From Bacteriovoracaceae bacterium (GTDB taxonomy: Bacteria; Bdellovibrionota; Bacteriovoracia; Bacteriovoracales; Bacteriovoracaceae): a DNA stretch of 64,000 nt. This document shows positions 47,410 to 63,013 of the stretch, piece by piece (positions within the stretch are counted from its first letter, which is position 1; each line of letters starts with the position of its first letter). A program made the position numbers and the translations under genes. Under the pieces are notes generated by a model. That model saw nothing but the letters and a program-made list of their open reading frames with translations. It did no database searches and had not been told where the DNA came from. Where the stretch lies: contig CANEUH010000017.1 in the NCBI GenBank assembly GCA_947441615.1, positions 10,807-74,806 of the forward strand, given 5' to 3'.

Positions 47410-48927
47410 ATGGCTTCATTATCCTTCGCAGCCTTGGGCGCTTTTCTTTTTTCTTTACCCTTTCCTGGAATCATTTTTACCGCGGGTTTGGGTGAAGGGT
47501 GGCCGTCCTTTTTAATTGCTCTATTGGGTTTATCAGTTCTCGTTAGGGGAATTCTGAGATTACCTAAGAGGAAGAGCTTTTATTTTCTCATGATGTTTTT
47601 TGCCGTTCACTATCTCATGACCTTTTATTGGGTTACTTTTCCGATTCATGAATTTAAAGGTATTTCAAAACCAGTCAGTCATTTATTAGGCATTGTTTTT
47701 TTTCTTATCAATTTTGGACATTATTTTTTAGTTTGGGTTCTGACTAAGAATTTTAATTTTGAAAAGTTTAGTAAAGATGAAAGCCTTCGCTTCCTTGCTG
47801 TAGCTCTGTTAGTTGCGACTTTAGACTTTTATTATCCGCAAATCCTTCCTGTTCATGCAGGACATATCTTTTATTTTCTTTCCTCCTCCTTTTGGGCCTC
47901 AATTGGGGGAACCTCTTTTCTTACCTTTGTCCTTATCTATGGCCTACTTTGGTTTTGGAACTCTGGACCTAAGTTTAAGCTCACCATCGCAAGCATTTTT
48001 GTTTTAATTTTATTGGGTGTTGAATTTATTGACCAATCTGAAAAGGGGGAAGCAAAAAATATCAAGGTCTCCCTAGTCCAGCCGAACGTTCCTAATTTGG
48101 CGAAGATTCAAGCTGAATTTGGCGAAAGACAGGCGCTCCAATCGCTTATGCAGATTCTTGCTCGTCAAACTAGGCTCGCGACGGGGTTAGTTTTCTGGCC
48201 AGAAACAGCCGTGCCCTTACATGTTTCCTATGAAGAAATGTTACCTGGAGAGAGGCAGAATTGGCTCTATCGAGAAATTTTCACTCGCAGTACCTTGGTG
48301 TTTGGTGCTTACCTGAGAGAAGGGGATAAAAAGGCAACTAATAGTTTATTGGCGTGGGATTCAGGGAAGCTTCAACGTTACGATAAAGGCTATCTTAAAC
48401 CTTTCGCTGAAGAACTTCCTTTTGGTGATGCTTCTCCTATGATCGCAAATTTGATAGGACTTGAATACCCAGTCATCAGAGGTTTTAATCAAAACCTTTT
48501 TGAAATTAATGGAGTAAGATTCTTTGGAAGTGTTTGCTATGAATCTTTAAAGCCTAATTACGTAATGCAAATGTTGCGTACTTTTAAAATACGGCCACAC
48601 TTCTTAATCAATGTGGCCAACGATGGATGGTTTGGTAAAACGTCTCAACCTTATCTACATTTTTTAATGAATGAGTTTCTTTCTGAACAACTCAATGTCC
48701 CAATCATTCGAGCCGCAAATACAGGAATTTCTGGAATTGCTTTCCCGGATGGAAGAAAGTCGCTAACGACGGCCTGGCATCAAGAAACAGTCTTGAATGC
48801 TGAGATCACTTACTTTGAAACGAGACCAACTCTTTTTGAAAAACTGGGATTTTTGTCTACGTTTGGTTTTGCAGCGTTGTTATTACTAACTCATTTCCTA
48901 TTAAATTTCTTGAAACGAAAGGGATGA
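47410..48927 (+). CDS. lnt: apolipoprotein N-acyltransferase
   Basis: Multi-TM N-terminal half followed by a nitrilase-like domain with VFWPETAVP (Glu), YDKGYLKPFAE (Lys) and SVCYESL (Cys). Confidence 0.85.
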   Translation: MASLSFAALGAFLFSLPFPGIIFTAGLGEGWPSFLIALLGLSVLVRGILRLPKRKSFYFLMMFFAVHYLMTFYWVTFPIHEFKGISKPVSHLLGIVFFLINFGHYFLVWVLTKNFNFEKFSKDESLRFLAVALLVATLDFYYPQILPVHAGHIFYFLSSSFWASIGGTSFLTFVLIYGLLWFWNSGPKFKLTIASIFVLILLGVEFIDQSEKGEAKNIKVSLVQPNVPNLAKIQAEFGERQALQSLMQILARQTRLATGLVFWPETAVPLHVSYEEMLPGERQNWLYREIFTRSTLVFGAYLREGDKKATNSLLAWDSGKLQRYDKGYLKPFAEELPFGDASPMIANLIGLEYPVIRGFNQNLFEINGVRFFGSVCYESLKPNYVMQMLRTFKIRPHFLINVANDGWFGKTSQPYLHFLMNEFLSEQLNVPIIRAANTGISGIAFPDGRKSLTTAWHQETVLNAEITYFETRPTLFEKLGFLSTFGFAALLLLTHFLLNFLKRKG

Positions 48928-49622
48928 ATCCATAATTTTATCCAAGTATCATTTCCTGTTTGATTTTGTTCTTTAGGTAGATGAACTGGATTTATTCTTT
49001 TTTTTAATAACTGATCCCATATTACAAACATATGGCCTAAATTCTTATGCTGAGTTTTTTCTTGGTGATGAAGTGCATGGTATGCTGGACTTACAATCAT
49101 CTTCCCAAGTATGCCGAAGTGCCAGTTAACCTTCGCATGTGATAGTGCTGAAAATACAAACATGAATATATTTAGGAATACATAGTTTTTATAAGGGATA
49201 CCAAAACATCCGAGGATGATAAATAAAGTCGAATGAGTAATGACTGTTTCGATCGGATGAAATCGCAATGATGAATGCCAGCGTAAATCGCGAGATGAGT
49301 GATGGATGAAGTGAAGTTTCCACAAAAAAGTCTCATGGTAGATTAGGTGCCAAGTATAGGCCCATAGGTCAGCAAAGAAGATTACTAATACCCATAACAC
49401 CCATAATGGGAGGATTGAGGGAAGATTAATAAATGACCAGGTTCCAGATAGTGAAAAATAGTAAAAAAGAACTTTTGAAACGAAAAAGTTCGCAATTATT
49501 GGATTCGTCATACCAAAGAGAAGGTCGCAAAAGAAAGCTCTGCCCAGTGTATATTTTTTCTCCAGTAGCCCGAATGCAACAATATTGAGTCCAATGAATC
49601 CTAAAAATATGATCATGTTCAT
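48891..49622 (-). CDS. fatty acid hydroxylase/sterol desaturase superfamily membrane protein
   Basis: His boxes HLIYHETFLWKLHFIHHSS and YHALHH in a TM protein. The first ATG is at 49622. The track start at 49631 is TTG. Confidence 0.75.
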   Translation of the reverse strand: MNMIIFLGFIGLNIVAFGLLEKKYTLGRAFFCDLLFGMTNPIIANFFVSKVLFYYFSLSGTWSFINLPSILPLWVLWVLVIFFADLWAYTWHLIYHETFLWKLHFIHHSSRDLRWHSSLRFHPIETVITHSTLFIILGCFGIPYKNYVFLNIFMFVFSALSHAKVNWHFGILGKMIVSPAYHALHHQEKTQHKNLGHMFVIWDQLLKKRINPVHLPKEQNQTGNDTWIKLWIHPFRFKKFNRK

Positions 49623-49683
49623 GGGGTCCAAATGAGTTTTTTAAACAACTTAGATCTCAGATGTTAAAGTTAATGTGAAAATC

Positions 49684-49713
49684 TTGGATAATAGTAACAT
49701 AATAGCCTATAAT
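49684..49713 (+). promoter_or_regulatory. candidate sigma-70 promoter placing the TSS at or near the peptide ATG (possible leaderless mRNA)
   Basis: TTGGAT (49684-49689), an 18-nt spacer, then TATAAT (49708-49713). The ATG at 49720 is 6 nt after the -10 and has no SD sequence. The AT-rich background makes this tentative. Confidence 0.3.
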
Positions 49714-49719
49714 TGATTT

Positions 49720-49890
49720 ATGAATGATGATACCAAAGAAAGTGATCCAAATAATTCTGATACTTATTATTTTGGAGGTCTCACGGTAAAAAAAATCGAG
49801 ATTGTTGAGGACGTTTTTGCGATTGCACAGTCTCCAATTAATTGCATTGGACCAATTACTTTTGGACCGTTTGGACCGTTTGGATCCTAA
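49720..49890 (+). CDS. unlisted 56-aa peptide ORF, candidate RiPP precursor
   Basis: Hand translation gives MNDDTKESDPNNSDTYYFGGLTVKKIEIVEDVFAIAQSPINCIGPITFGPFGPFGS followed by a stop. It is just under the 60-aa cutoff. The stop lies 3 nt before the GT2 ATG. The C-terminal core is encoded by the 9-bp tandem repeat TTTGGACCG. Confidence 0.4.
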   Translation: MNDDTKESDPNNSDTYYFGGLTVKKIEIVEDVFAIAQSPINCIGPITFGPFGPFGS

Positions 49891-49893
49891 AGA

Positions 49894-50961
49894 ATGTTTA
49901 GTTTCATTATTCCTGCGTGCCAAGAAGAGTCTCAAATCCGACTTACCATAAGATCCATACTTAAGAACAATTGGGAATCTCCTCCAGAGATTATAGTTGT
50001 TGAAAATGGATCAACTGACCTAACAGCATCGGCCGCCAAAGAAGAAGGGGCCATTGTCCATTCTCTTTCAGTTCAAAGTCGATCCCTTGCAAGAAACTTC
50101 GGAGCTAGTCTTGCCACAAAGGAGTGGTTGGTCTTTCTTGACTCCGATGTTGTCCTCGACGAAAAGTGGAGTGAGGGACTTCTTAAAGCCGTAAAGAATC
50201 CTTGGTATGAGATCATTCAGGGCCCAATCATCCCTTCCGGAAAAGAAAATTTTTTAAATCGATTTAGATATAATCATGTGAGCGAAAAAACCAACGCAAC
50301 CTTTTGCTCATTTCTTACGGAATCATTTATACCAATTCTTAATTCAGCTTGTTTTGCTATTAAAAAGCAAAATTTTTTTGCGATAGGTGGTTTTGATGAA
50401 AACCTTCCTCGGTCTGAGGATCTTGATCTTGGCTTTAGGTGTTTCTTTGAAGGGTTAGTGTTTGCTACGGAGTCATCTATGAGATCCTATGTTTATTGGA
50501 ATCATGGAATTATTGGTTACCTTAAAAGATTCTATTTTCAAGGAGAGTCTATTCGTAAACTTGAAAGAAAATGGCAGATGAATTTGGTAGAGGATGGAAG
50601 GAGACTAGTTTCTATTAGGACAATTACGGAAAAGTTTGGTTTTTTTAAAATTCTAATTCATATTTTACAGTGGTTTGGATGGAAAAAAGAATCTCTTGGA
50701 GACCAAGTTATCATCCAAAAAAAAACAATGTGGCCTTATCGCTTAAGAGGAAGGAACTCCAGGCTTCCCTTCTTTTGGAATTGGAGGTATAAATGGTGCC
50801 CTCTGCCTCATACCCGGTTTGTGTTTGGATTAGAAGATATAAGAATTTATTATCTAAATGAAATTTTTGATATCCTCTATTGGAAAAGCGAAGGAAGCAT
50901 TCAGGATTTAGATGAAAGGCTTGACCTCATTCAAAATCCTGAAGGTTTTACGATTGCCTAG
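49894..50961 (+). CDS. family 2 glycosyltransferase with ~120-aa C-terminal extension
   Basis: FSFIIPACQEE, IIVVENGSTD and FLDSDVV (DxD) motifs. Tightly coupled to the upstream peptide ORF. Confidence 0.8.
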   Translation: MFSFIIPACQEESQIRLTIRSILKNNWESPPEIIVVENGSTDLTASAAKEEGAIVHSLSVQSRSLARNFGASLATKEWLVFLDSDVVLDEKWSEGLLKAVKNPWYEIIQGPIIPSGKENFLNRFRYNHVSEKTNATFCSFLTESFIPILNSACFAIKKQNFFAIGGFDENLPRSEDLDLGFRCFFEGLVFATESSMRSYVYWNHGIIGYLKRFYFQGESIRKLERKWQMNLVEDGRRLVSIRTITEKFGFFKILIHILQWFGWKKESLGDQVIIQKKTMWPYRLRGRNSRLPFFWNWRYKWCPLPHTRFVFGLEDIRIYYLNEIFDILYWKSEGSIQDLDERLDLIQNPEGFTIA

Positions 50962-51590
50962 TTTAGTTTTTTAAATGTCTCTGGTACTGAAAATATTTTC
51001 TGAGGAATAATAGTGTCTATTTTTTTGGCTATATAGATTGCATTTATATCTTTTGCGACTTCTCTGGTTAAAATTAGTGCTAATCGACCCGTTTGGGGTT
51101 CAACAATGCGTTCAATGTCCAAACGATTCATCACAAATGGAGTTACGGAATAGGAACTATACCATAGACTGTAAGTCATCTTCGTTTGATCATTTTTATA
51201 ATATTTAGGATAAAGCTTTTCACCCAAGATTTCCATTGAGTTAGACGGATTACGTGGTTTATCTTCACTAATTTTTAATATTGGTAGTTTGTCATAATTA
51301 ACTAAAGAATATGTTTTTTCTTTCATGTCCACAAAAGTCATTATTTTTTTTTCGTCATCAAATATATAAATAAATTCTTGTTTGTCGTTCGCTTTTAACC
51401 CAGCAGTTGTGACGATAGCTTTCTTGTTGTTTGACATATAAAAATGAAACTCATATTCCCTAGGGAGATTGCCGCTAACATAGTTTTTACTGTAGCTAAC
51501 TTCATAGTAAACATGTCCTGGAAAAGGTTTTGCCCACGCCAATGAGAATACCCAACAATTTATTACAATCAGCATGTAAAATAGCTTCAT
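50958..51590 (-). CDS. hypothetical periplasmic protein
   Basis: Signal peptide MKLFYMLIVINCWVFSLAWA. Beta-rich. No family recognised. Confidence 0.5.
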   Translation of the reverse strand: MKLFYMLIVINCWVFSLAWAKPFPGHVYYEVSYSKNYVSGNLPREYEFHFYMSNNKKAIVTTAGLKANDKQEFIYIFDDEKKIMTFVDMKEKTYSLVNYDKLPILKISEDKPRNPSNSMEILGEKLYPKYYKNDQTKMTYSLWYSSYSVTPFVMNRLDIERIVEPQTGRLALILTREVAKDINAIYIAKKIDTIIPQKIFSVPETFKKLN

Positions 51591-51637
51591 AAGTACCCCT
51601 TTCTCATTTAGTAACTTTTATAATAGCATAAATCATT

Positions 51638-52606
51638 ATGCAGAATTCGCAATTGGCCGATGCTGAAAATAGTGCTTTGATATGGATCCTCAATAAGGCC
51701 CAGGAATGGGAAATTCAGTTTGAGTTAAATCAGCAATTGGTGGAGCATTTCAATATCCATTTATATAGTTGTCATTTAAGGAAGTTCGGACATTTGGCCA
51801 TAGGGTTTGGGGCCGACCATAATAGGCGACGCGCTCAGCTGAAGGCTGCAATGGAATCTTTAGAAAGACGATTGGTAATTGATAACAGTTGGAAACACTC
51901 AAGTGGAACTTCTTTGCATATTGACCCTCATATTGCCCGTGAAAAGGCCATCAATGAGGCACTTGAAAGAGATGCTTTCTTTTGTCATTTCTATACTCAA
52001 ACTTCTTTTGGCCTGTTAGATGATTGTAAGCTCTCGGATGAGTGGAGTGATTTACTTAAAAAAAGAAACCTCATAGGAGAGTTGAGGCGACTTCATTCTC
52101 ATGGAGATATAAACGTAGTAGTAGCAGCACTTAGAGATGAGGAAAGAAAAATTGGTATATGTATCGGACTAGGAGCTAACCAATCAGCCAAAAAGGCAGC
52201 TATTCACGCACAGAATGAGTGTTTGAGTTTTTATTCCTATTTGGTGAGCTCAAAATCTCCTGTTAGTTTTAATATCAATCAATTTCGATCAAAAGAAGAT
52301 TGGAGTGTTTTCGACCATGGTCATCTTGGTAAAGATATAGAATATGGGGAGTGGTTTTGGGATACGTACCTGGCCTCGCCATCCTCCAACCGAACGACTC
52401 TAAACGGATTACCTACGGCCCAGGAATACCAAATCACTGGGGTGATTCAAGATGCGCCCTTTTCTCTTTGGAGGGCAGATCAGACAGGCTTGCAAGAGCC
52501 CTTCTGGGGAAGATATGATGAATTGAATCAAAAGAGATTAGAGGAATTTTGTGGAAAAAAATGGGAGCAGATCATTCGTCCGTCCTATCCCCACTGTTTT
52601 ACATAA
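51638..52606 (+). CDS. YcaO-like family protein (short form)
   Basis: GFGADHNRRRAQLKAAMESLERR, then GTSLHIDPHIAREKAINEALERDAFF, then IGLGANQSAKKAAIHAQNEC. This pattern of G-x-G ... A-x-x-E-x-x-ER and ExxERDAF blocks is characteristic of YcaO/SagD-type domains. Confidence 0.55.
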   Translation: MQNSQLADAENSALIWILNKAQEWEIQFELNQQLVEHFNIHLYSCHLRKFGHLAIGFGADHNRRRAQLKAAMESLERRLVIDNSWKHSSGTSLHIDPHIAREKAINEALERDAFFCHFYTQTSFGLLDDCKLSDEWSDLLKKRNLIGELRRLHSHGDINVVVAALRDEERKIGICIGLGANQSAKKAAIHAQNECLSFYSYLVSSKSPVSFNINQFRSKEDWSVFDHGHLGKDIEYGEWFWDTYLASPSSNRTTLNGLPTAQEYQITGVIQDAPFSLWRADQTGLQEPFWGRYDELNQKRLEEFCGKKWEQIIRPSYPHCFT

Positions 52607-52608
52607 GT

Positions 52609-53103
52609 ATGATTAAATATATTCCAAATGTTTTTTCTAAAGCGGAGCATTCCCTCATCAAAGATTATGCCACTAAACTATACTCACAAAGAGATGTGTT
52701 AGGGTGGGATGAAAAATTTAATCGTCATTTCGTGCACAATCCTAAGCCGCTACAGAAGTTCCATCTTTTGCTAGAGGAATTTATGAGTGAACACTACGGA
52801 AGAAAACTAAAAAAAAGCTATTGCTACTTAGCGATGTATGGACCGAATGGTGTCTGCAAGCGTCACGTTGATCGTATCCAATGCCAGTACTCTTTCGATT
52901 ACTGTCTTACATTTGATAAACCTTGGCCTTTGTTCGTTGAAGAGAATGGCAGTGCTGAAAGATTTGATTTAGAAGAAAACAGTGCTCTGGTTTATCGCGG
53001 TACCGAGCAGTTCCATTGGAGAGAAGATAGGAAAGAAGGTCATTTTTGCCACATGATCTTCTTTCACTTTGTACCCATAGAATTTGAAGGACAATTAATT
53101 TAG
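52609..53103 (+). CDS. 2OG-Fe(II) oxygenase superfamily protein (prolyl-hydroxylase-like)
   Basis: KRHVDR (HxD) ... ALVYRGTEQFHWRE (distal His) ... an RKEG basic residue about 10 aa later. The ATG at 52609 lies 2 nt after the YcaO stop. Confidence 0.5.
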   Translation: MIKYIPNVFSKAEHSLIKDYATKLYSQRDVLGWDEKFNRHFVHNPKPLQKFHLLLEEFMSEHYGRKLKKSYCYLAMYGPNGVCKRHVDRIQCQYSFDYCLTFDKPWPLFVEENGSAERFDLEENSALVYRGTEQFHWREDRKEGHFCHMIFFHFVPIEFEGQLI

Positions 53104-53411
53104 ATAACTTCGATGATTTTGTACTCGATAAGATTTTTTATAAAAGCTGCAACATCCTCTTGAAACTGATTATTATCCCAGTTTTTCCCTTCTTGTAGGG
53201 TCAGCATCTTATTGATCAGGCTTTGTTTTTGAGAAATAGCTTCAAAAATTTCAATTGCGATGCCGTCTATTTCAAAAATCGACTCGTCTTCATTGAAAAG
53301 AAATGCAACAATCTTACCATCCGACTTTCTAAAAGCGACTTCACTACTTAATTGGTAGAATTCTGCGATGTGCTTTTTATTGAAGAATTGGATTAAAGTA
53401 TTTTTGGTCAT
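53100..53411 (-). CDS. PqqD-family protein (stand-alone RiPP recognition element-like)
   Basis: 103 aa. ...SDGKIVAFLFNEDESIFEIDGIAIEIFEAISQKQSLINKM...FQEDVAAFIKNLIEYKIIEV follows the PqqD/RRE pattern: beta strands, a 'L-N-x-x-g-x-x-I' helix, and a C-terminal Dv..Fl..L...gli helix. Confidence 0.55.
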   Translation of the reverse strand: MTKNTLIQFFNKKHIAEFYQLSSEVAFRKSDGKIVAFLFNEDESIFEIDGIAIEIFEAISQKQSLINKMLTLQEGKNWDNNQFQEDVAAFIKNLIEYKIIEVI

Positions 53412-53420
53412 GGATTACCT

Positions 53421-54287
53421 ATGGGGAAATGTTATCAGGATTTAATTCTTAATATCAAGAAAAAGATCGCAGAGATTCGAACCGATGTCGATGACATTAA
53501 TGGGCCTATGGAAATTTTAAACAGCACCCACATGCTGAATGAAAATTTTTTAGATGAGCTTCCAGAAATTCTTCGGGATAGACCAATGGCCCGACAAACT
53601 TTCAATGGTCAAGATTTTAGTCAATTCCCGCTCACCCTGTTGAACTACGAAGGATACAACTTAGATTTATACTTCTGGAACAAGGCCAATACTTCCATTC
53701 ATGATCATAATTTCAGTGGTGCGTTCAAGGTTATTAAAGGCATTTATTTTCAAACGACGTTCCGATTTGAAAAAATAAAAGTATACAATGACTGGTTAGC
53801 GCAAGGGGATTTGAATAAGATTAAGAGTGAAAAGCTCATCGCTGGTGATGTCATAGGTATAAAAAGGGGCAGTGATTTCATCCATGAAACCTACCATTTC
53901 CAGGGAGAATGTGTCACAGCTTGTCTTCGTTCAGAGGCAAGAACTGGACCAATTCACAGTTTCTTTCCACCCTCTCTCAGGCTAAAATCTGTACCCTTTG
54001 ATTTAAAAGAAATCAAGATGCTTGATTATATTCGTTTCCTTATGCTTACTATTGATGAAAATACAGAAACGATTCGCTCTCTCTTAAGTGATTTTAGTAA
54101 TCCTATCCTTTGCCAAATTATATTTAGTTATAATGTTCCTGAATGGCTCAAGCGGGTCGAGCTTAGAAGCATTGCAATGGAAGTATTACAAAACCGTCAT
54201 CAAAATGAGGAATGGTTTCCAGAAATAAAACGCTGCCTTGAAAGGCAAAAGATTATGAACACGAAGCTTGGTCATCTAATGACTTGA
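53421..54287 (+). CDS. cupin-fold protein, cysteine dioxygenase type I-like
   Basis: NTSIHDHNFSGAFKVIKGIY resembles the CDO motif S-x-IHDH-x-x-S-x-x-F-x-K-x-L-x-G. A later FIHETYH could supply the third His. Confidence 0.45.
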   Translation: MGKCYQDLILNIKKKIAEIRTDVDDINGPMEILNSTHMLNENFLDELPEILRDRPMARQTFNGQDFSQFPLTLLNYEGYNLDLYFWNKANTSIHDHNFSGAFKVIKGIYFQTTFRFEKIKVYNDWLAQGDLNKIKSEKLIAGDVIGIKRGSDFIHETYHFQGECVTACLRSEARTGPIHSFFPPSLRLKSVPFDLKEIKMLDYIRFLMLTIDENTETIRSLLSDFSNPILCQIIFSYNVPEWLKRVELRSIAMEVLQNRHQNEEWFPEIKRCLERQKIMNTKLGHLMT

Positions 54288-55104
54288 AAAGCGACTGCCT
54301 TTTCAAAGCACTCACTAATTTCATTTTTTTCAGACAAAAGAGAATCCATTTAACAGGGTCCCAGTTATACCATTTTCTTCCAGCGCGATAATCGTTTGGG
54401 AGCATATGATGATAATGATGGTAGCCATCCCCCATCGTTAAGATAGCAATCCATAGGGAGTTTCCTGCGGTGATATTTTTTAGCGGGCGAGATCCAAACA
54501 TATGGCAGTAAGAGTTGATGAGGAAGATGGAATGATGGAACAAGAAGATTCGAAAAAATCCAAGAAAGAAGAGACCGAAGGCAAGATTTCCAATCAGTAT
54601 CCCTAAAAAAATCGGAAGAATTAATCCCATGAGTATGGATAAAGGGATGATCCATTTATTTTGCCAATTAATCCAGTAATCACTTTCTAGGTCTTGAACA
54701 AAGCTGACGGTGGAGCTGACTTCATCAGAATGAATCGCCCAGCCTAGATGGGCATATAAAAAACCCTTACTGATCGAGTATGGATCCATTTTTTCGTCTT
54801 CCGGATAAGCATGATGATGGCGATGATCTCGTGCCCATTTAAGTGCTGAATTCATAAAAGCAGCTGGCCCTAATAAAAGGAAAAAAAATTTCAAAGAAAA
54901 TTTGGGCGTAAAAGATTTATGGGAGAAGTAGCGATGATATCCAGCACATATAGAAAAAGCGATTAGTAAATATAAAACAAGGAATGTCGTGATTTCTGTT
55001 AGGCCAATTCGAATCCCTCCTGTAAATAAAAAATATAGGCCAATGATGGACATCACAGTACTAAGGGAGAAGAAAAAAATATTTATCCTTTTAAAAGATT
55101 TCAT
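54253..55104 (-). CDS. acyl-CoA (delta-9-type) fatty acid desaturase
   Basis: Three His boxes GYHRYFSHKSF, ARDHRHHHAY and GDGYHHYHH in a 4-TM protein. Confidence 0.85.
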   Translation of the reverse strand: MKSFKRINIFFFSLSTVMSIIGLYFLFTGGIRIGLTEITTFLVLYLLIAFSICAGYHRYFSHKSFTPKFSLKFFFLLLGPAAFMNSALKWARDHRHHHAYPEDEKMDPYSISKGFLYAHLGWAIHSDEVSSTVSFVQDLESDYWINWQNKWIIPLSILMGLILPIFLGILIGNLAFGLFFLGFFRIFLFHHSIFLINSYCHMFGSRPLKNITAGNSLWIAILTMGDGYHHYHHMLPNDYRAGRKWYNWDPVKWILFCLKKMKLVSALKRQSLFKSLDDQASCS

Positions 55105-55308: not shown

Positions 55309-55977
55309 ATGGCATTCATTGAAGTCACTGATCTTAAGAAGACTTACTCAAGTAATGATAACCAAGTTGAAATTTTGAAAGGCTTGAACTTGGAGATAGG
55401 AAAAGGGGAGTTTGTTTCTCTTATGGGTCCCAGTGGCGCTGGAAAGAGTACTTTCCTTCAGCTTTTGGGAGCACTAGATAGGCCCACCAGCGGAGAAATC
55501 ATTATCGACGGAAAAAAAATTGGATCAATGACTGATAAAGAACTCACCATTTTTAGAAGAAGGAATTTAGGTTTTATTTTCCAGTTCTTTAATTTAATGC
55601 CCACACTTTCTGTTCTTGAAAATGTTGTCCTCCCTTGTTTTCTTGATGGAAAAAAATTAAAAGAAGTGAGGGGAGATGCTGAAGAAATTCTTTCAAGACT
55701 TGGGCTTTCTCATCGATTAGATCACCGGCCTTATCAATTATCCGGAGGCGAAATGCAGCGAGTTGCTATCGCCAGAGCACTCATTAATAAACCTTCTCTC
55801 ATCTTGGCGGATGAGCCAACAGGGAATCTTGATAGTAAGAACGGTAAAGAGGTTCTTTCTATTTTAAAAAACCTCGTCACAGAGTTTAAAGTGACACTCA
55901 TTATGGTTACCCATGATAAATCTGCTGCAGATTATGCTGATCGCAAGATTTTCATGCAAGATGGAACCGTCATTTAA
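55309..55977 (+). CDS. ABC transporter ATP-binding protein (MacB/LolD-type)
   Basis: Walker A GPSGAGKST, Q-loop, signature LSGGEMQRVAIARAL, Walker B LILADEPTGNLD and H-loop VTHD. Confidence 0.9.
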   Translation: MAFIEVTDLKKTYSSNDNQVEILKGLNLEIGKGEFVSLMGPSGAGKSTFLQLLGALDRPTSGEIIIDGKKIGSMTDKELTIFRRRNLGFIFQFFNLMPTLSVLENVVLPCFLDGKKLKEVRGDAEEILSRLGLSHRLDHRPYQLSGGEMQRVAIARALINKPSLILADEPTGNLDSKNGKEVLSILKNLVTEFKVTLIMVTHDKSAADYADRKIFMQDGTVI

Positions 55978-55986
55978 GGGAGATCT

Positions 55987-58599
55987 ATGATTTCAAATCT
56001 TTTTCGATATTTTAGCCTTCGTTATCTTCTCATGAATCCTTTCAGGACTTTCCTGACATTTTTAGGAGTGGCATTAGGAATTTCACTTTTTTTATCCATA
56101 CTCTTATTGAATGATGCAACCCTGAGATCAATGGATGAGAACATTGAATCTATGACAGGTAAAGCTGATCTAACGATAACTTCAGATGGTATGGGGTTTG
56201 AGGATTCTGTTCTTGAAAAGGTAAAAAATATCCCACAAATAAAATCCGCCATCCCACTAATCATTAATTATGCTTACATGGAGAATGGATCTGTTGGATC
56301 TAGTGGGCCAATGATCTTTCTTGGTATTGATCTATTAAAAGATAACTCTGTACGTGAATACAATAAGGAAGGAGGGGATATTATCCCTGATCCTCTAGCG
56401 TTTCTCAATCAAGCAGACAGTATTATTGCAACAAAGTCTTGGGTAAAACGGCATCATTTAGAGATGGAAAGTTCGATTGATCTTCTGACGAAAGAGGGCC
56501 TAAAGTCATTTGCTATCAGAGGAATGATTGATGATATTGGTCCTGCGAAGGCGTTTGATGGAAATATGGCGATCATGGATATCGACGGGGCCAGGTTTAA
56601 TTTTGGCAGGGATGGTCTGTATGATCGAATTGATCTCATCCTTCAAAAAGGTGTGAGTGTTAAGATTCTTAAGAATGATCTTAAGAAGCTTTTAGGTTCA
56701 AGATTTAAAGTTGAAGATAAAAAAGAACAATCAGAATCCATGCAGCAATTGGTGAAATCAATTCAAGATGTTTCTGGAATGCTTGGCCTCATTGCCTTTC
56801 TTGTGGGATTTTTAATTATTGTCAATACTGTGAATACGGCGATTTCTCAAAGAAGAAAAGATATAGGATCCCTGAGAGCATTTGGAGCAGAGTCGGTTCA
56901 TATCATTACTCTTTTTGCCGGTGAGTTTATCTTTCTAGCACTCTGTAGCTCTCTCTTGGGTTGTTGGCTTGGATTTTTAATTGCACAAGGCTCGGCCGAT
57001 CAGGTTGCTGCCGGATTAAATTCAACGCTCTTTACGAATGTTCCAAAAATGGACATTGTTTTTGAGTCTCGGCATCTTTTTTCAGGACTCTTTTTAGGTT
57101 TATTAAGTTCTACGATTGCTCTTGTTTATCCTCTTTATAAAGCACTACAAATTCATCCGATTGAAGCCATTCGACCAACGACGGTTGATTTTGGTCTCCA
57201 TCAAAAACCGAAGGGGCTTGTGTGGGCGGGGAGAGTAGGTTTTCTACTTTTCATTTTTACAGTCATTGCTGCTTATTTTTCCAACACAGAAGAATTTCTT
57301 CAAAATAAAGAAATCCAACCATTTTTTCTTCTTACGGGCATTACGAGTATCATGTTAACGGGACCCTATTTGGTCCTAGTTGTCCTTTCAAATCTTCAAA
57401 GATTACCCCTCCCATTCCTTGTGAAGTTTTCTTTGGCCAATTTATTAAAAAATCCAGGGCGTACAGCGAGTACATCAATCCACTTGTCTCTGGGATTTAG
57501 TTTAGTCATTGTTGTTTCTGCGATAAATATTTCCTTTAAATCCACCATCATCAATTGGGCCAACATCATCACAAGCGCCCCTAATATTGTTAACCTTAGT
57601 TCTTGGGGGAGTCTCTCAGGTCTTCAGGTTCAGCCTCTTCATGAATCTTTAAAAGAAAAATTGCAGGCCCTCCCTCATCTGAATCCAGAAAATAAGTCTC
57701 CTTTAACGGGGATTAGAATCGTTCCCGTTACCATTGAAGGGAGTCGATTTATGATTAAGGCTTTTGACATGCCTGGAGGAAATGCAGAATTTCACTTTAT
57801 TGATCCCATCGAGGGGGACCGTAGAGAACTTGGTAAAAGACTATTTGATCCCCAAGTTGAAAGTGTTCTCTTCTCTGAAACAATGCTGAAGTTTTTTCGC
57901 AAGAAAGTTGGGGATACCTTTACTATGGAAACCCCGATGGGGAAGGCAACATTCGTTATCGCTGGTAACATTAGAGAGTTTGCGAGTCCCAATGGTGTTG
58001 TCTATTTTAATCGTGATGTTTATAAAAAATATTGGAAGGATCCTCTCGTCACTTTGATTTCAATTAATCACTCATCAGATATTTCAAGCCGTGACTATCA
58101 GGCACTCATTGGTCCAGAGTTAAATAAGAAAGAACATCTGATGGTTAATTTACCTTCAAAAATTAGTGAAGAGGTTGAAAAAAATCTCAATAATAATATG
58201 GCGATGTCTGATTCTACGAAGTGGATCGCACTCTTTATCGGTACTCTGGGACTTCTTAATTCATTCTTAATCAGTATTCTTCAAAGATTCAGGGAGCTAG
58301 GTTGTATTCGATCTATTGGCATGACTAAAGGTCAGCTTATTGGGATGATTCTCTTCGAATCAGTTACGTTAGGTATTACAGGAGTCATTATCGCTTTTGT
58401 TCTTACCCTGCCTATCGGTTACATTTGGGTGAATTCCACCTTAAGTCATCTTCTAGGGTGGAAGGTTCAGTTTTACTTTACGGGCATGGATTTTTTGATT
58501 CTCTTTATCGTTGGTTTAGTTGTTTCTTTTTCCGCAGGCCTATTTCCCGCTCTGAAAGCAGCTAAACTAAACTTAAGAGAAGCACTTGAGTACGAGTAA
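55987..58599 (+). CDS. ABC transporter permease with two FtsX-like domains and large periplasmic domains
   Basis: 870 aa. Two repeats of the periplasmic MacB-like domain plus the 3-TM FtsX module: ISQRRKDIGSLRAFGA... and ILQRFRELGCIRSIGMTKGQL.... Confidence 0.85.
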   Translation: MISNLFRYFSLRYLLMNPFRTFLTFLGVALGISLFLSILLLNDATLRSMDENIESMTGKADLTITSDGMGFEDSVLEKVKNIPQIKSAIPLIINYAYMENGSVGSSGPMIFLGIDLLKDNSVREYNKEGGDIIPDPLAFLNQADSIIATKSWVKRHHLEMESSIDLLTKEGLKSFAIRGMIDDIGPAKAFDGNMAIMDIDGARFNFGRDGLYDRIDLILQKGVSVKILKNDLKKLLGSRFKVEDKKEQSESMQQLVKSIQDVSGMLGLIAFLVGFLIIVNTVNTAISQRRKDIGSLRAFGAESVHIITLFAGEFIFLALCSSLLGCWLGFLIAQGSADQVAAGLNSTLFTNVPKMDIVFESRHLFSGLFLGLLSSTIALVYPLYKALQIHPIEAIRPTTVDFGLHQKPKGLVWAGRVGFLLFIFTVIAAYFSNTEEFLQNKEIQPFFLLTGITSIMLTGPYLVLVVLSNLQRLPLPFLVKFSLANLLKNPGRTASTSIHLSLGFSLVIVVSAINISFKSTIINWANIITSAPNIVNLSSWGSLSGLQVQPLHESLKEKLQALPHLNPENKSPLTGIRIVPVTIEGSRFMIKAFDMPGGNAEFHFIDPIEGDRRELGKRLFDPQVESVLFSETMLKFFRKKVGDTFTMETPMGKATFVIAGNIREFASPNGVVYFNRDVYKKYWKDPLVTLISINHSSDISSRDYQALIGPELNKKEHLMVNLPSKISEEVEKNLNNNMAMSDSTKWIALFIGTLGLLNSFLISILQRFRELGCIRSIGMTKGQLIGMILFESVTLGITGVIIAFVLTLPIGYIWVNSTLSHLLGWKVQFYFTGMDFLILFIVGLVVSFSAGLFPALKAAKLNLREALEYE

Positions 58600-59886
58600 C
58601 TAAAAGATGTAATTCGCTCCAAGGCCAATTGAGCTTAAATCCTCGAGCGCACCGAAGGGAGCATTTGAGCTACCTTTAAAGATGAGTCCATACAATTGAA
58701 AGTTAAGATTATTATTGAATTGATAGTCCACTTGCGGAGTGAAAAGATTTGAGTCTTCTTGGTGAAAGTAATTAAGCCAAGAAAACTTAAACTTAAATTG
58801 ATTCAGATCCGATGGTTCAAAATAATAAATAAAGAGATAACCTAATCTAGTTTGGAGATGCTGAGCAAGAATGAAGCGATTCAATATTTGAATTTGTTCC
58901 TGAAGCTGACTGGTTGGTTCTTTTAATTCATAATTGGGATAGTGGTGAACGACTCCTTGCAAATTAAACCGATGTGTTTCAAATAAACTAGACTCAAACC
59001 CAGCAATTAAGTCGATGCGGTTTGGGTCTTTAATATAATCTGAATCTTCAGTCTCTTCTCTTTGTGTGAATGCCCCTTCAAATCTAACAATAAAATCTTC
59101 AAAATCTTTGACTAGATTTAATCCATGCGCGTTTTGTCGAACATACTTAGGGGTAAGTTTCAACTTTAAAGGAAAAAGGCTAAATGAGTCCTGAATAAAT
59201 ACGGGAGTTTTATTAACTCCAGAAAAATACGTGTAATCAAAATCCCAACCTTGACCTGCATAACTAATCTTGGTGGCAACTTCAGGTCTCTTTGATGTTT
59301 CAGGCGAAGAAATTTGAACAAAGTCAGCAATCAATGTTTTGTTTAATAATACGTCAGTTTTGGAGTGAATCCCAACAATCCACTGCTGAAGTGACCATGG
59401 TGAAGCTCCTTCATCCGGGAGCCATTCAATCATTGTACTCGTGTGTCCGCGACGGGTCAGTTGATCATCTGTGACGAGGAGGATATTTCTCTTGCCGGTG
59501 AGAAAATCGGTAGGATTTAAGCCATCGGATTTTCCCCAGGAGGTTATGATTTGTCCTGCTTTTACATTCCAACTTCCAGAGGAAAGTGAAAGATTGAGCT
59601 CGTTTATTTCTGAAAAAAGTTCTCCTGCTTTTAAATTCTTGTGCGGTACGGATAATAAAGGAGATTGAACCTGATAAGAAATCCCTTCAAAATTAAATTT
59701 GATATTTTCATCAATCGAATTTTTAAGTTTTAAAATCCCACCGGCATTCAACTCTGAATGATTCTCAGTCAGGGCATCTAGCTTTCCTAGATAATTTCCC
59801 CAGATCTTACCACCCCAGTCTATCTTTTGATCCTGGGCCCATGAGTGACAAGGGACCAATAGAAAGAGTAATCCAAATTTAATCAT
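58600..59886 (-). CDS. hypothetical outer-membrane beta-barrel protein
   Basis: Signal peptide MIKFGLLFLLVPCHSWA. Alternating beta pattern. C-terminal beta-signal GLGANYIF. 8-nt overlap with the upstream LolA-like gene. Confidence 0.55.
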   Translation of the reverse strand: MIKFGLLFLLVPCHSWAQDQKIDWGGKIWGNYLGKLDALTENHSELNAGGILKLKNSIDENIKFNFEGISYQVQSPLLSVPHKNLKAGELFSEINELNLSLSSGSWNVKAGQIITSWGKSDGLNPTDFLTGKRNILLVTDDQLTRRGHTSTMIEWLPDEGASPWSLQQWIVGIHSKTDVLLNKTLIADFVQISSPETSKRPEVATKISYAGQGWDFDYTYFSGVNKTPVFIQDSFSLFPLKLKLTPKYVRQNAHGLNLVKDFEDFIVRFEGAFTQREETEDSDYIKDPNRIDLIAGFESSLFETHRFNLQGVVHHYPNYELKEPTSQLQEQIQILNRFILAQHLQTRLGYLFIYYFEPSDLNQFKFKFSWLNYFHQEDSNLFTPQVDYQFNNNLNFQLYGLIFKGSSNAPFGALEDLSSIGLGANYIF

Positions 59887-60682
59887 TTTTTCCTAGTCTC
59901 TGTTTAAAGAAAAGATTTTCAGGGATTTTCTTGTTTCCATCGATCTGACTAAATTCCAGGATGGTAAAGTTTCCGTTAGTAAGATTTTTCATATGAAGGT
60001 ACTGAAAGAAAAAAGTGTTTTTTGAGATATTCACAATCTTAGTGGTATTTAATTCTTTAAAAAGTTTTCCTGATTCATCAAAGTAATGAACTCGATCACT
60101 CATGAAATTGTCATTTCGAATCCATAAAAGAAGTTTCGAGTACCCTAGTCGATCAGCACTTGCAGTATTTTTTAACGTCGCAGTGATTTTGTAGCATGAT
60201 AGCTTTTTATCATTTGAAAAATTTGGACAAGCTTCTATTCCCATCTCTTTATAGAGGTAGTCCTCATTTTGAAGTGCCGTGATATCTGAAAAAGAAAAAT
60301 CAGAGGCCATGAAGCTTCCTTTTTGCTGGGAGCTTTCAATCATGCGAGTTTTTTTAAAGGTAGGAAGCCACATGAGAATTTCATTTTTATCCCCCTCTGC
60401 TTCAAGAAAGAGAATGGCCTGGTCTTTTACGGTGGCAGGGGTGTGAAATTTCGTCAGAGTATTATAGTGAATTCCATTTTTCTGAAGACTTCTCCACCAT
60501 GAAAATGTTTTTTCTTGTCTTTTTCTTGAGCCGCCATCAATAATGATTTTCCCCTCGGCCTTTAGTTGAATCATTTTTCTAGAGAATTCGTTTTTCTTCA
60601 TAATCTCAGTGGCCTTCCAATTAGGGGCCGCCAAAATACCAAAAGACAAAAGAGAAAGAGTGATGAAACCCAGGATTTTCAT
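59879..60682 (-). CDS. outer-membrane lipoprotein-sorting (LolA-like) family protein
   Basis: Signal peptide. MWLPTFKKTRMIESSQQKGSFMASDFSFSDI matches the LolA_like family core (W.Y.Pa..r.RRI....r..sFmGSDFsyeD). Confidence 0.7.
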   Translation of the reverse strand: MKILGFITLSLLSFGILAAPNWKATEIMKKNEFSRKMIQLKAEGKIIIDGGSRKRQEKTFSWWRSLQKNGIHYNTLTKFHTPATVKDQAILFLEAEGDKNEILMWLPTFKKTRMIESSQQKGSFMASDFSFSDITALQNEDYLYKEMGIEACPNFSNDKKLSCYKITATLKNTASADRLGYSKLLLWIRNDNFMSDRVHYFDESGKLFKELNTTKIVNISKNTFFFQYLHMKNLTNGNFTILEFSQIDGNKKIPENLFFKQRLGKND

Positions 60683-60712: not shown

Positions 60713-61510
60713 TTATAACAAGATTGAAGAGGACCCTGAGAAATAAAAGGGTGAGGAAATTATGGACAGTAGGGGATGTTTTTTGTCGGGTAGTTCGTTA
60801 TTTTTCATCAAATGATTCCACGTTTTTTGGATCGTTGAATTTTGGACTTCTTCCGTGCAAGTTTGGTTACAGATTTGAACTAATAATTGGCATGTTCCAT
60901 TTCGATCTACTCGGTCCATGACTTTGTATGTTAAGCCTCGTGGCAAAAGAACTTCTTCCTCAAGTTGATTAATCAGAATCCCAGGGTGCTTACTTGAGTC
61001 GGTGTAAAGATAAAGAACCCCACTGCCTTTTACTTTTTCTGTATTTACTCCAGCAAAGGCCTCCGCTACCGCTAGTTTTACCGATGTCGAAACAAAAGCT
61101 TTATCCAGGTAGACTTCATTTTTTTCATAGCATTTATTATTCCTAAATCCAAAAGTGACACCTCTAAAAGTCATTAAATTTGATGGAAGCTTTGCTAATT
61201 TCTTTATTCCTTTATCCATGTTTGAGATCGTTTTTTTTAAATCATCTAAATCAGTAAAATAGTAAAGGTCTTCGGCCTTACCAGTCCTTAAATAGCTATT
61301 AATCTCTGGATAGATAGGATCATCATATTCGACATAACTTTGTAGTGCCCAAGCCTCTTCTTCTAAGACTTTCTTTTGGTTTTGTGCTTCGTAGATATCG
61401 CTGTAACCGACAATTGCGGAAAGCTCTTTGTAACTGTAGAAGGGAGAGTGATCGGCCAAGGCCGAAGTCATTGATAAAATAAAATTTAGAATAATAATTG
61501 TTTTTCTCAT
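60713..61510 (-). CDS. secreted ADP-ribosyltransferase, R-S-E (C3/Vip2 exoenzyme-like) class
   Basis: Signal peptide MRKTIIILNFILSMTSALA. ALQSYVEYDDPIYPEINSYLR (Y..IN..LR region), MTFRGV (Arg), FVSTSV (STS) and LEEEVLLPRG (ExE, ARTT loop). Confidence 0.65.
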   Translation of the reverse strand: MRKTIIILNFILSMTSALADHSPFYSYKELSAIVGYSDIYEAQNQKKVLEEEAWALQSYVEYDDPIYPEINSYLRTGKAEDLYYFTDLDDLKKTISNMDKGIKKLAKLPSNLMTFRGVTFGFRNNKCYEKNEVYLDKAFVSTSVKLAVAEAFAGVNTEKVKGSGVLYLYTDSSKHPGILINQLEEEVLLPRGLTYKVMDRVDRNGTCQLLVQICNQTCTEEVQNSTIQKTWNHLMKNNELPDKKHPLLSIISSPFYFSGSSSILL

Positions 61511-61702
61511 ACTGATAAGTGTATCCGGCTCCCGAGGAGTTTAGGGTCTCATTTGAAACAATTACAACTTGTGCCTAGGGTTTAAACATAGCGAATGTAC
61601 GAACTCGAAGGATGTATTATCAGGTACTTAGTAGGTGACAGATTTTGTAAACTTCCAAGATACGAACTTTATCAGGTAAGATTTCTTCCTCTGGAGAAAC
61701 AT

Positions 61703-63013
61703 ATGATGAAGTTACTATTGGCCCTTTGGCTAAGTTCGTTTTCTTTAACTTTTGCTCAAACATCGATTGGTATATCTGAGGCAGACCTAACCCCTGAAAT
61801 GCAAGTTCCTTTGGGTGGCTATGGGAGTGCCGCTAGAAGAAATTGGCCTTTTCAGTTCTTTAAGACTCGTCCATTTCTACGTCTTTTTAAATCAGCACAA
61901 GGCTCTCTTGATCCCATCCGTGCGAAAGTCATGACGTTATATAAAAACAATCAAAGAATTGTTTGGATTAGTTTAGACGTCGTTGGTGCACCAGCAGAAA
62001 TTCACACTGCTCTTTCATCAAAGCTCGCTCCATTAGGAGTGAAATCGGAGCATCTGTTTATCTCTGCAACTCACACCCACTCTGGTCCTGGAGCGCTTTC
62101 GAGAAATCATTTCTGGCAAGTCTTTGCCATGGATCGGTTTCAGAATGATTTTTATCAGTTTTTTATTGATAAAATAGTCTCTGCAGTTAAAGAAGCGATT
62201 GATTCTGAAACATCTGCTCGCTTGTTCAGTCACCGTTTTAAGGCCGATGGTCTTACTCATAGTCGAAGAGCGGGTGGAAATGATATCGATCGGGAAGTCA
62301 CTACATTATTAGCGAGAAGCGATGATGGAAGATGGCTTGGAGGAATCGTGAATTTTGCCATTCATGGAGTTTGTCTTGGTGATGACAATTTATATTTTAG
62401 TTCAGATGTTCCCGGTTCAATTGAGAGAAGTGTAGAAGATTATCTAGAAAAACAAAATCCTTTTTTCTCGTCAAAGAAACCAACTATCCTTTTGATTAAT
62501 GGCGCAGAAGGCGATGTTAGCCCTGATCATTATGGTAAGGAAGGAATGGAAAGAATTGGTAAAGATTTCATTTCAAAATTAAATGAAAGCTGGAGCTCTA
62601 CGGAAGAAATTAATCCAGAAATTAAAGTTAGAAGTACGGAGATTAAATTAGGTACACCGAAAGTCATCTTAAGAAAATGCCTAGAGAAAAACTGGATTCC
62701 TAAATGGTTTGGTCTTCGAATTAAAAGATATATCAATTCAACAACGACACTTTCACAAATACAGCTAGGACAAATGCTCTTTGTCACCTGGCCTGGAGAG
62801 CCAACAAGTGCTCTAGGGTTAGAACTTAAAAATCATATTTATCAAAATGGTTACAACCGTGCCGTCGTGATGGGACTAACGAATGATCATTTGGCATACT
62901 TCACCACTCCAGAGGAATTTTTAGCAGGTGGCTATGAGACCTGTGTGAATTTTTTTGGGGCCGATGGTGGAAACAATATTCTTCAAAAGCATAAAGATAT
63001 CATTAACCAATAA
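61703..63013 (+). CDS. neutral/alkaline ceramidase-like hydrolase (copy 1)
   Basis: Signal peptide MMKLLLALWLSSFSLTFA from the ATG at 61703. LGGYGSAARR, ISATHTHSGPG, NFAIHGV and INGAEGDVSP blocks are typical of the neutral ceramidase N-terminal domain. Confidence 0.6.
   Translation: MMKLLLALWLSSFSLTFAQTSIGISEADLTPEMQVPLGGYGSAARRNWPFQFFKTRPFLRLFKSAQGSLDPIRAKVMTLYKNNQRIVWISLDVVGAPAEIHTALSSKLAPLGVKSEHLFISATHTHSGPGALSRNHFWQVFAMDRFQNDFYQFFIDKIVSAVKEAIDSETSARLFSHRFKADGLTHSRRAGGNDIDREVTTLLARSDDGRWLGGIVNFAIHGVCLGDDNLYFSSDVPGSIERSVEDYLEKQNPFFSSKKPTILLINGAEGDVSPDHYGKEGMERIGKDFISKLNESWSSTEEINPEIKVRSTEIKLGTPKVILRKCLEKNWIPKWFGLRIKRYINSTTTLSQIQLGQMLFVTWPGEPTSALGLELKNHIYQNGYNRAVVMGLTNDHLAYFTTPEEFLAGGYETCVNFFGADGGNNILQKHKDIINQ

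Follow-up and report, generated by a model that had tools for sequence, protein, structure and literature searches.

Within a 64,000-nucleotide stretch of DNA from an uncultured Bacteriovoracaceae bacterium (the window), seven tightly packed genes encode a small precursor-like peptide and a set of putative modifying enzymes, an arrangement that probably represents an undescribed cluster of the type that makes peptides synthesized on ribosomes and modified after translation (RiPPs). The products are the 56-residue peptide, a family 2 glycosyltransferase (GT2), a 210-residue protein, a YcaO protein, a predicted Fe oxygenase of 164 residues, a PqqD-like protein and a predicted cupin of 288 residues (Table 1). 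All coordinates and motifs that a first-pass annotation had assigned to the set agree with the list of open reading frames (ORFs) and with the raw sequence; the seventh gene, which that annotation counted without naming, is the one for the 210-residue signal-peptide protein. The strand pattern is + + - + + - +, with convergent pairs overlapping by 4 nucleotides and divergent pairs lying 9-47 nucleotides apart, and because the strands alternate the genes, though packed, are not a single operon. Chance does not account for the arrangement, since five independent lineages share it amid different flanks.

These five loci, which we call type 1, are the window, L003/4, L006, L007-9 and L012, the YcaOs of the last four being 74%, 43%, 44% and 42% identical to that of the window. 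Their common order is an apolipoprotein N-acyltransferase (Lnt), the peptide, the GT2, the 210-residue protein (minus strand), the YcaO, the oxygenase, the PqqD-like protein (minus strand; not in L006) and the cupin. In P0002, whose YcaO is 77% identical, the contig starts at the GT2 and the same order follows from there. The genes outside the block differ in every lineage, L003 (74% identical) and the window included, and the conserved unit therefore extends from Lnt through the cupin. Thus, the co-occurrence on which the first-pass proposal depended is found, with the block kept in five lineages at YcaO identities of 42-77%. The YcaO family is very rare, forming 7 clusters among 5.8 billion sequences. 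YcaO scans of a genome collection and of metagenomes returned only short YcaOs of 24-29% identity in a different context, and the most distant relatives that could be located are in metagenome-assembled genomes of Bdellovibrionales.

Table 1. Genes of the block and its surroundings in the window (aa, amino acids; nt, nucleotides)
Feature	Position	Strand	Remarks
Peptide ORF	49720-49890	+	56 aa; stop TAA
GT2	49894-50961	+	ATG 3 nt past the peptide stop
210-aa protein	50958-51590	-	Signal-like N terminus
YcaO	51638-52606	+	322 aa; MESLERR and NEALERDAFF
164-aa protein	52609-53103	+	Conserved ATG 2 nt past the YcaO stop
103-aa PqqD-like protein	53100-53411	-	Stand-alone; candidate RiPP recognition element
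288-aa protein	53421-54287	+	Contains SIHDHNFSGAFKV; predicted 3-His cupin
Lnt, apolipoprotein N-acyltransferase	47410-48927	+	Left edge of the conserved block
Membrane fatty-acid hydroxylase-superfamily enzyme (accessory)	48891-49631	-	PF04116, 77.8 bits
Membrane fatty-acid desaturase (accessory)	54253-55104	-	PF00487, 57.3 bits
ABC ATPase, 870-aa MacB/FtsX permease, 428-aa protein, LolA-like TP_0789 protein	55309-60682		Possible exporter

The precursor-like peptide

Six distinct versions of the peptide are known, drawn from ORFs at the same position in every related locus and from phmmer, run exhaustively over 1.84 billion representatives, which returned four true relatives. All six share YYFGGLxV…[I/V]FA[I/V]xQSP within a conserved N-terminal region of ~40 residues. 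After QSP comes a variable stretch, then three to seven GP[F/Y/I] units, and the chain ends in GPF-x-[S/P]. In the window, the conserved region reads YYFGGLTVKKIEIVEDVFAIAQSP and is followed by Cys 42 and GP[F/I] repeats. Between the window and L003, the proportion of nonsynonymous differences (pN) is 0.13, against a proportion of synonymous differences (pS) of 0.83, at which synonymous sites are saturated, and the protein sequence of the peptide is therefore under purifying selection. The 56-residue ORF is a real, conserved protein-coding gene, and a small ORF of this kind is present in every related locus, as the first-pass proposal required.

The cysteine lies in an SPxxC motif in five of the six versions. 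The exception is L007/P0056, which reads SPMTP, contains no cysteine anywhere and has a threonine instead. The description of the core as a single-cysteine peptide thus holds for five versions and fails for this one.

The peptide stop lies 2-3 nucleotides before the GT2 start in the window, L003 and L006, confirming the close spacing reported earlier, and the two genes overlap by 4 nucleotides in L007 and L012. In the window and L003 they share a frame, parted by the stop codon plus one codon. They are in different frames in L006, L007 and L012, which shows the peptide and the GT2 to be two genes rather than a split gene or a read-through fusion.

No family in Pfam or NCBIfam matches the peptide, and neither a signal peptide nor a lipobox was found in it; it is predicted to be soluble. 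The conserved cysteine was considered as a lipobox cysteine and rejected, there being no hydrophobic signal segment, a proline at position -3 and one lineage without the residue. Matches of the peptide to large proteins (865, 510 and 1161 residues) were discarded as artefacts of tetratricopeptide (TPR) and IPT repeats, for example DPNNADTYYNKG. Residues 8-22 (window 49741-49785), SDPNNSDTYYFGG, mimic the TPR consensus DPNNADAYYNKG in the window and L003, which explains the spurious multi-repeat matches to large TPR proteins; this stretch is not seen in the other members of the peptide family.

At the DNA level, the GPF repeats correspond to a 9-bp direct repeat that is nearly perfect (window 49855-49885: tttggaccg tttggaccg tttggatcc), and slippage there could drive the variation in repeat number between lineages. 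Of the sigma-70-like matches in the region, the best, TGGATA-17-TATAAT (10/12; window 49685-49713), ends 6 nucleotides before the peptide ATG, ahead of which there is no obvious Shine-Dalgarno sequence. Together these hint at a leaderless or very short-leader transcript. In a scan for promoters and terminators, the counts of matches, promoter-like ones included, did not exceed those in shuffled sequence, and an Rfam scan of the window returned one tRNA and nothing else.

Predicted enzymes of the block

The YcaO assignment of the first-pass annotation holds, with a significant match to PF02624 (45.9 bits; cut-off 25.7) and both signature motifs present, although only profile positions 113-260 are covered. 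Seven residues (E73, E76, R77, E107, E110, R111 and D112) are invariant in eight sequences down to 23% identity, and the acidic ATP/Mg motifs (ExxER and ExxERD) align to the same motifs of MJ1094. A profile search of the Protein Data Bank (PDB) places two archaeal thioamidating enzymes closest among solved structures, 6pe3 (1.3e-7) and 6ci7, which are TfuA-independent. At 322 residues, the protein is ~57 residues shorter than 6pe3. Azoline-forming YcaOs carry a proline-rich C-terminal motif, PxPxP; the C terminus here, [Y/F]PHC[F/L][T/A], is conserved and differs from it. The score on the SagD-family model TIGR03604 is 31.6 bits, well under the cut-off of 219. Searches of the 10 locus proteins against Pfam and NCBIfam identified no E1-like (SagC/Ocin-ThiF) protein and no SagB/nitroreductase-like protein, and TfuA was likewise not found in the locus.

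The 103-residue protein of the window scores 18.4 bits on PqqD (PF05402), below the cut-off of 23.4. The model is matched by all four members of the family, with a best E-value of 1.3e-5, and hhalign pairs the family with the clearly PqqD-positive proteins of L010 and L013 at 94% probability; weak PDB matches are to the lasso chaperones TbiB1 and 9x90. By these profile comparisons, the PqqD-like call holds at the family level, and the protein is a candidate RiPP recognition element (RRE), while the window protein taken by itself does not reach the threshold. The gene is present in four of the five type-1 loci and missing from L006.

The GT2 matches PF00535 with 81.8 bits, and its D83xD85 and E175-D176 are invariant. 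Its best NCBIfam matches, MftF (72 bits; cut-off 280) and TIGR04283, are both far below their cut-offs. The best match among PDB sequences is the protein O-GlcNAc transferase GmaR (51 bits), as compared with 27 bits for dolichol-phosphate mannose synthase. The enzyme is predicted to be soluble with zero transmembrane segments and bears an uncharacterised C-terminal extension of ~90 residues. A fused RRE in this extension was rejected, since hhalign scores it at a probability of 3.5% against the PqqD-like family and no PDB sequence matches. The GT2 assignment itself stands on the Pfam score and the DxD motif; a kinship with SunS does not, TIGR04195 scoring 11.8 bits against a cut-off of 350, and the match to SunS in the PDB (E = 1.4e-4) covers the generic nucleotide-binding part only.

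For the 164-residue protein, the ORF list extends the start to a TTG at 52549, and the homologues are all 160-165 residues long. Nothing in Pfam or NCBIfam matches it at E ≤ 0.1, PF13640 included, and nothing among PDB sequences at E ≤ 10. Its AlphaFold (AF2) model has a mean confidence (pLDDT) of 96, and the Foldseek matches of this model are 2-oxoglutarate (2OG)-Fe(II) oxygenases at a probability of 1.0. The highest TM-scores are to prolyl hydroxylases, namely Pseudomonas putida prolyl 4-hydroxylase (P4H; 0.74), Dictyostelium PhyA (6t8m; 0.73) and PHD2 (0.70). H86-x-D88…H136 is invariant in 15 sequences. The predicted structure identifies the protein as a double-stranded beta-helix Fe oxygenase of the prolyl-hydroxylase-like kind, in line with the oxygenase call made earlier from its HxD...H motif. 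No invariant arginine or lysine occurs in the last strand (147-156) of the sequence alignment, where a basic residue ~10 positions past the distal histidine was sought; the invariant R89 or R138 could substitute as the 2OG-binding residue.

A comparable picture is obtained for the 288-residue protein, which the first-pass annotation had likened to cysteine dioxygenase (CDO) from a motif. Neither Pfam, including CDO_I (PF05995), nor NCBIfam has a matching family, and its profile finds CDO chains weakly (E = 0.005, 19 bits). The fold search supports the call, as the top 50 PDB matches of the AF2 model (pLDDT 92) are all thiol dioxygenases: CDO (3.8e-9), cysteamine dioxygenase (ADO), plant cysteine oxidase 4 (PCO4), and mercaptopropionate (MDO)/mercaptosuccinate and ergothioneine dioxygenases. 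H94, H96, H155 and H159 are invariant in 21 sequences, and H94, H96 and H155 fit 3-His motifs. The model thus predicts a 3-His cupin of the thiol-dioxygenase fold with an additional C-terminal helical domain (residues 195-287). An equivalent of the Cys 93-Tyr 157 pair of CDO is not evident in the sequence alignment.

The 210-residue protein is present in all five type-1 loci and its N-terminal signal-like segment marks it as secreted or periplasmic. It has no match in Pfam, NCBIfam or PDB sequences. A LolA-like or DUF4412-like identity has no support, given these negatives and an hhalign probability of 0.2% against the TP_0789-like protein of the window.

Flanking genes and related clusters

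Lnt scores 173 bits on TIGR00546 (cut-off 132.9), also matches CN_hydrolase and retains the catalytic residues WPE / K / CYE in its sequence. Each of the five type-1 loci has it directly upstream of the peptide gene; the genes on its own upstream side vary, and its identities across loci (68/46/46/43%) track those of the YcaO. The hydroxylase has orthologues at the same place in L003, in the interval between Lnt and the peptide, and after the cupin in L012 (74% and 56% identity); the desaturase has them after the cupin in L007, as in the window, and before Lnt in L012 (54% and 47%). L006 has neither. The recurrence of both enzymes at shifting positions argues for a functional linkage. Lnt, hydroxylase and desaturase are membrane proteins, whereas the core enzymes and the peptide are predicted to be soluble.

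The MacB-type ABC, LolA-like and 428-residue export set is syntenic only in the 77%-identical P0002 locus and is absent from L003, L006 and L012; it was therefore rejected as part of the system. The first-pass suggestion that flanking genes belong to the same system thus survives for the hydroxylase and the desaturase, which travel along, as above all does Lnt, and not for the MacB/LolA-like/outer-membrane-protein set, which is shared with the closest relative only. Beyond that set, at window 60713-63013, one gene product belongs to the ADP-ribosyltransferase exoenzyme family (PF03496, 60.8 bits) and that of its neighbour is a neutral/alkaline ceramidase-like protein (PF04734, 103.8 bits); the ADP-ribosyltransferase gene is also syntenic in P0002. 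Directly upstream of Lnt in L003/L004 (1-5641) are genes for a LanC-like protein, one with a protein kinase domain, two unknown proteins and a C39-peptidase ABC transporter. From its gene content this region looks like a lanthipeptide-type cluster, and its genes are absent from the window.

A second, more distant cluster type (L010/L015, partly L013) brings the YcaO-like protein, the cupin, the GT2, a clear PqqD and the oxygenase together again in a different arrangement. Since these five enzyme families re-associate, they behave as a functional core, which argues for joint work. Type 2 spans L010 1-16400 and the syntenic L015, and occurs also in L013/L014; the YcaO-like protein of L010/L015 is divergent, and no counterpart of it was found in L013/L014. 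These clusters are without Lnt, hydroxylase and desaturase. Their companions are carbamoyltransferases, GDPD, a radical SAM enzyme, a Pol-beta nucleotidyltransferase and a 5'-nucleotidase-like Metallophos protein, and a Metallophos/5'-nucleotidase gene also adjoins the type-1 cluster of L006. No GPF-type precursor was found in L010/L015, only a conserved 92-residue ORF of unclear relevance.

The short YcaOs of 24-29% identity form a sister clade that shares ERDxFFCH (L001 6220-12079; also L018, L022, L023, L025, L026 and L027). Its operon, itself conserved, encodes in this order a small protein of ~90-110 residues, an SBP_bac_5-like protein of ~520 residues, the YcaO and a sensor histidine kinase, with a gene for a sigma-54 response regulator just upstream in L001. 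The small proteins have a cysteine near the C terminus in four of five aligned cases and a signal-like N terminus in L001 and L023. To judge from this gene content, the operon may be a YcaO-modified signalling peptide system.

Interpretation of the locus

We consider the locus to be a conserved, undescribed YcaO/RRE-dependent, RiPP-like peptide-maturation cluster of uncultured Gram-negative bacteria, with a probability of roughly 70%; each individual chemical step is much less certain than the RiPP-like system as a whole. As in RiPP clusters, a short precursor gene adjoins modifying enzymes, and its product combines a conserved N terminus with variable C-terminal repeats. The type-2 clusters aside, this reading is also favoured by the sister clade, where short YcaOs again adjoin small proteins with a C-terminal cysteine. 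A peptidase, expected in such clusters, was not found in the block with Pfam or NCBIfam, and a MacB-type ABC set accompanies it only in the window and its closest relative.

Several observations weigh against this assignment. The genes lie on alternating strands and are not one operon. The same profile searches show a leader peptidase, TfuA, an E1-like partner and an azoline dehydrogenase all to be absent from the locus, and the YcaO appears truncated relative to solved YcaOs. The PqqD-like gene is absent from L006, and the cysteine-free lineage L007/P0056 still keeps cupin and YcaO. The oxygenase has no obvious basic residue ~10 positions after its distal histidine, so that 2OG is no more than a putative cosubstrate. 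Finally, a peptide lacking both signal peptide and lipobox leaves access to the periplasmic site of Lnt unexplained, and the adjacent lnt could simply be a housekeeping copy.

In the proposed mechanism, the N-terminal region of the peptide would be a leader; the PqqD-like RRE would bind it as a beta-strand and present the peptide to the cytoplasmic enzymes. The YcaO would use ATP to activate a backbone amide, most likely giving an azoline from the SPxxC cysteine or, in the sixth peptide, from threonine. The azoline is the most plausible product because the cysteine is conserved, with threonine in the exception; thioamidation is the alternative, because the nearest solved relatives are thioamidating. 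The 164-residue oxygenase would hydroxylate the core, probably at the prolines of the GPF repeats, and the GT2 would glycosylate a hydroxyl or thiol. The cupin would carry out an O2-dependent oxidation, and the secreted 210-residue protein would act outside the cytoplasm in immunity, binding or processing.

The adjacent Lnt and the recurrent hydroxylase and desaturase raise a tentative extension, possible though rather doubtful, in which the product is lipid-linked, being N-acylated after export. RiPPs can be lipidated through Lgt/LspA/Lnt, as in the dyb cluster (2026; PMC13056109), where precursors with a canonical signal peptide and lipobox are proposed to use the general lipoprotein pathway of the host, Lgt, LspA and Lnt (PMC13056109). 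The dyb product is a ribosomal peptide tied to lipidation of the Lgt/LspA/Lnt type (PMC13056109), and here lnt lies within the conserved block. The systems differ in that the peptide here has neither the signal peptide nor the lipobox that this route requires, and in their tailoring enzymes, a YcaO here where dyb has an MNIO (PMC13056109). The fullest form of the idea, which is unlikely, is a new kind of glyco-lipopeptide: a GPF-repeat peptide with its backbone activated by a minimal YcaO, hydroxylated by the PHD-like enzyme, oxidised by the cupin and glycosylated, then N-acylated by a dedicated in-cluster Lnt and with its acyl chain tailored by the hydroxylase and desaturase. If it were true, a lipoprotein-type acyltransferase would have been recruited into a natural-product pathway without a lipobox, and the thiol-dioxygenase-fold cupin would perform chemistry not yet seen in peptide natural products.

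On sequence criteria, the locus resembles a YcaO/RRE RiPP cluster yet belongs with none of the thiazole/oxazole-modified microcins (TOMMs), the YcaO-TfuA systems, the glycocins or mycofactocin. With known YcaO pathways (TOMMs; Methanocaldococcus jannaschii MJ1094 acting on McrA) it shares both acidic motifs and a small peptide with a leader-like region and Cys/Ser/Thr in the variable part; it differs in its short YcaO and in lacking E1-like/Ocin-ThiF, TfuA and SagB-type dehydrogenase partners. We know of no YcaO class accompanied by a PHD-like oxygenase, a thiol-dioxygenase-like cupin or a GT2. Mycofactocin likewise joins a small peptide (MftA) to a stand-alone PqqD-like RRE (MftB) and a GT2 (MftF), to which the present GT2 is nearest, but the radical SAM enzyme MftC and MftD/MftE are missing here, the MftF score is far below its cut-off, and the mycofactocin peptide ends in GVY where this one ends in GPF-x-[S/P]. 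Glycocins (SunA/SunS) also place a GT2-fold enzyme beside a ribosomal peptide that usually contains cysteine, but the SunS model fails here, and the paired-helix, disulfide-rich core peptides of glycocins are not found.

The 164-residue fold is closest to prolyl hydroxylases of the PHD type, and, as with PhyA and Gnt1 acting on Dictyostelium Skp1, a proline-rich candidate substrate and a glycosyltransferase are at hand; in contrast, there is no family match at the sequence level, use of 2OG is only putative, the G-P-F context of the prolines is unlike known P4H motifs and the glycosyltransferase is of another family. The cupin shares its fold and 3-His site with thiol dioxygenases, of which ADO and plant PCO act on peptides and CDO and MDO on small thiols, and most of the peptides have a cysteine; it differs in the extra C-terminal helical domain and the lack of a CDO_I match in Pfam, and one peptide lineage is cysteine-free. 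To our knowledge, no thiol dioxygenase has come from a RiPP pathway. The first-pass annotation recognised no RiPP class with this enzyme set, and full-text literature searches for the enzyme combinations gave nothing relevant.

A RiPP-like cluster has to be weighed against other explanations of the same genes. The peptide might be a scaffold for a small molecule in the style of mycofactocin, PQQ or pearlin, its GP[F/Y] units or C-terminal GPF-x-[S/P] being oxidised, excised and glycosylated to yield a small metabolite or cofactor. The kinship of the GT2 with MftF and TIGR04283, a stand-alone PqqD-like protein as in the PQQ and mycofactocin pathways, the two oxygenases, and a repeat number that varies from ~3 to 7 while the extreme C terminus is kept would all fit. 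However, MftF is matched at only a quarter of its threshold (72 of 280 bits), the type-1 block contains, by Pfam and NCBIfam, neither a radical SAM enzyme nor a peptidase nor a flavoenzyme, and there is no sign of excision, so that we regard a scaffold as improbable.

It is also improbable, and slightly more so, that the block is a neighbourhood for remodelling envelope lipids or lipoproteins, in which the small protein would serve as an accessory or regulatory subunit and not as a substrate, with the YcaO, PqqD-like protein and oxygenases acting on a protein or lipid head group. The constant adjacency of Lnt, which in L006, L007 and L012 probably shares a transcript with the small gene, the recurring hydroxylase and desaturase and the ceramidase nearby in the window are what one would expect of it, and Lnt-GT2 adjacency has a precedent in the actinobacterial Lnt/Ppm1. 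The GT2 is soluble, though, and closer to GmaR than to dolichol-phosphate mannose synthase, and PqqD-like proteins and YcaOs are in general peptide-directed families. Moreover, Lnt, hydroxylase and desaturase are all absent from the type-2 clusters, which nevertheless retain the five soluble enzymes, and L006 lacks both lipid enzymes. Mere adjacency of unrelated genes packed into a compact genome, to which the strand alternation and the several genes without family annotation might point, is very hard to credit given that five lineages, each with flanks of its own, retain the order and the overlaps at 42-77% identity, and that the five enzyme families come together again in a rearranged second cluster type.

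Because the source bacteria are uncultured and the family is extremely rare, heterologous expression is the sole route to the product. If the RiPP-like assignment is right, the locus would define a new class of RiPPs whose precursors, built on GP[F/Y] repeats, form a new family. It would add two folds that are new to RiPP pathways in the searched literature and that we do not know from any such pathway, a thiol-dioxygenase-type cupin and a minimal PHD-like oxygenase, and it would have a truncated YcaO working without a known partner protein. The known range of YcaO chemistry and of peptide tailoring that depends on O2 would thereby be widened, and a testable question would arise, namely whether a natural product can have an Lnt-type acyltransferase of its own.

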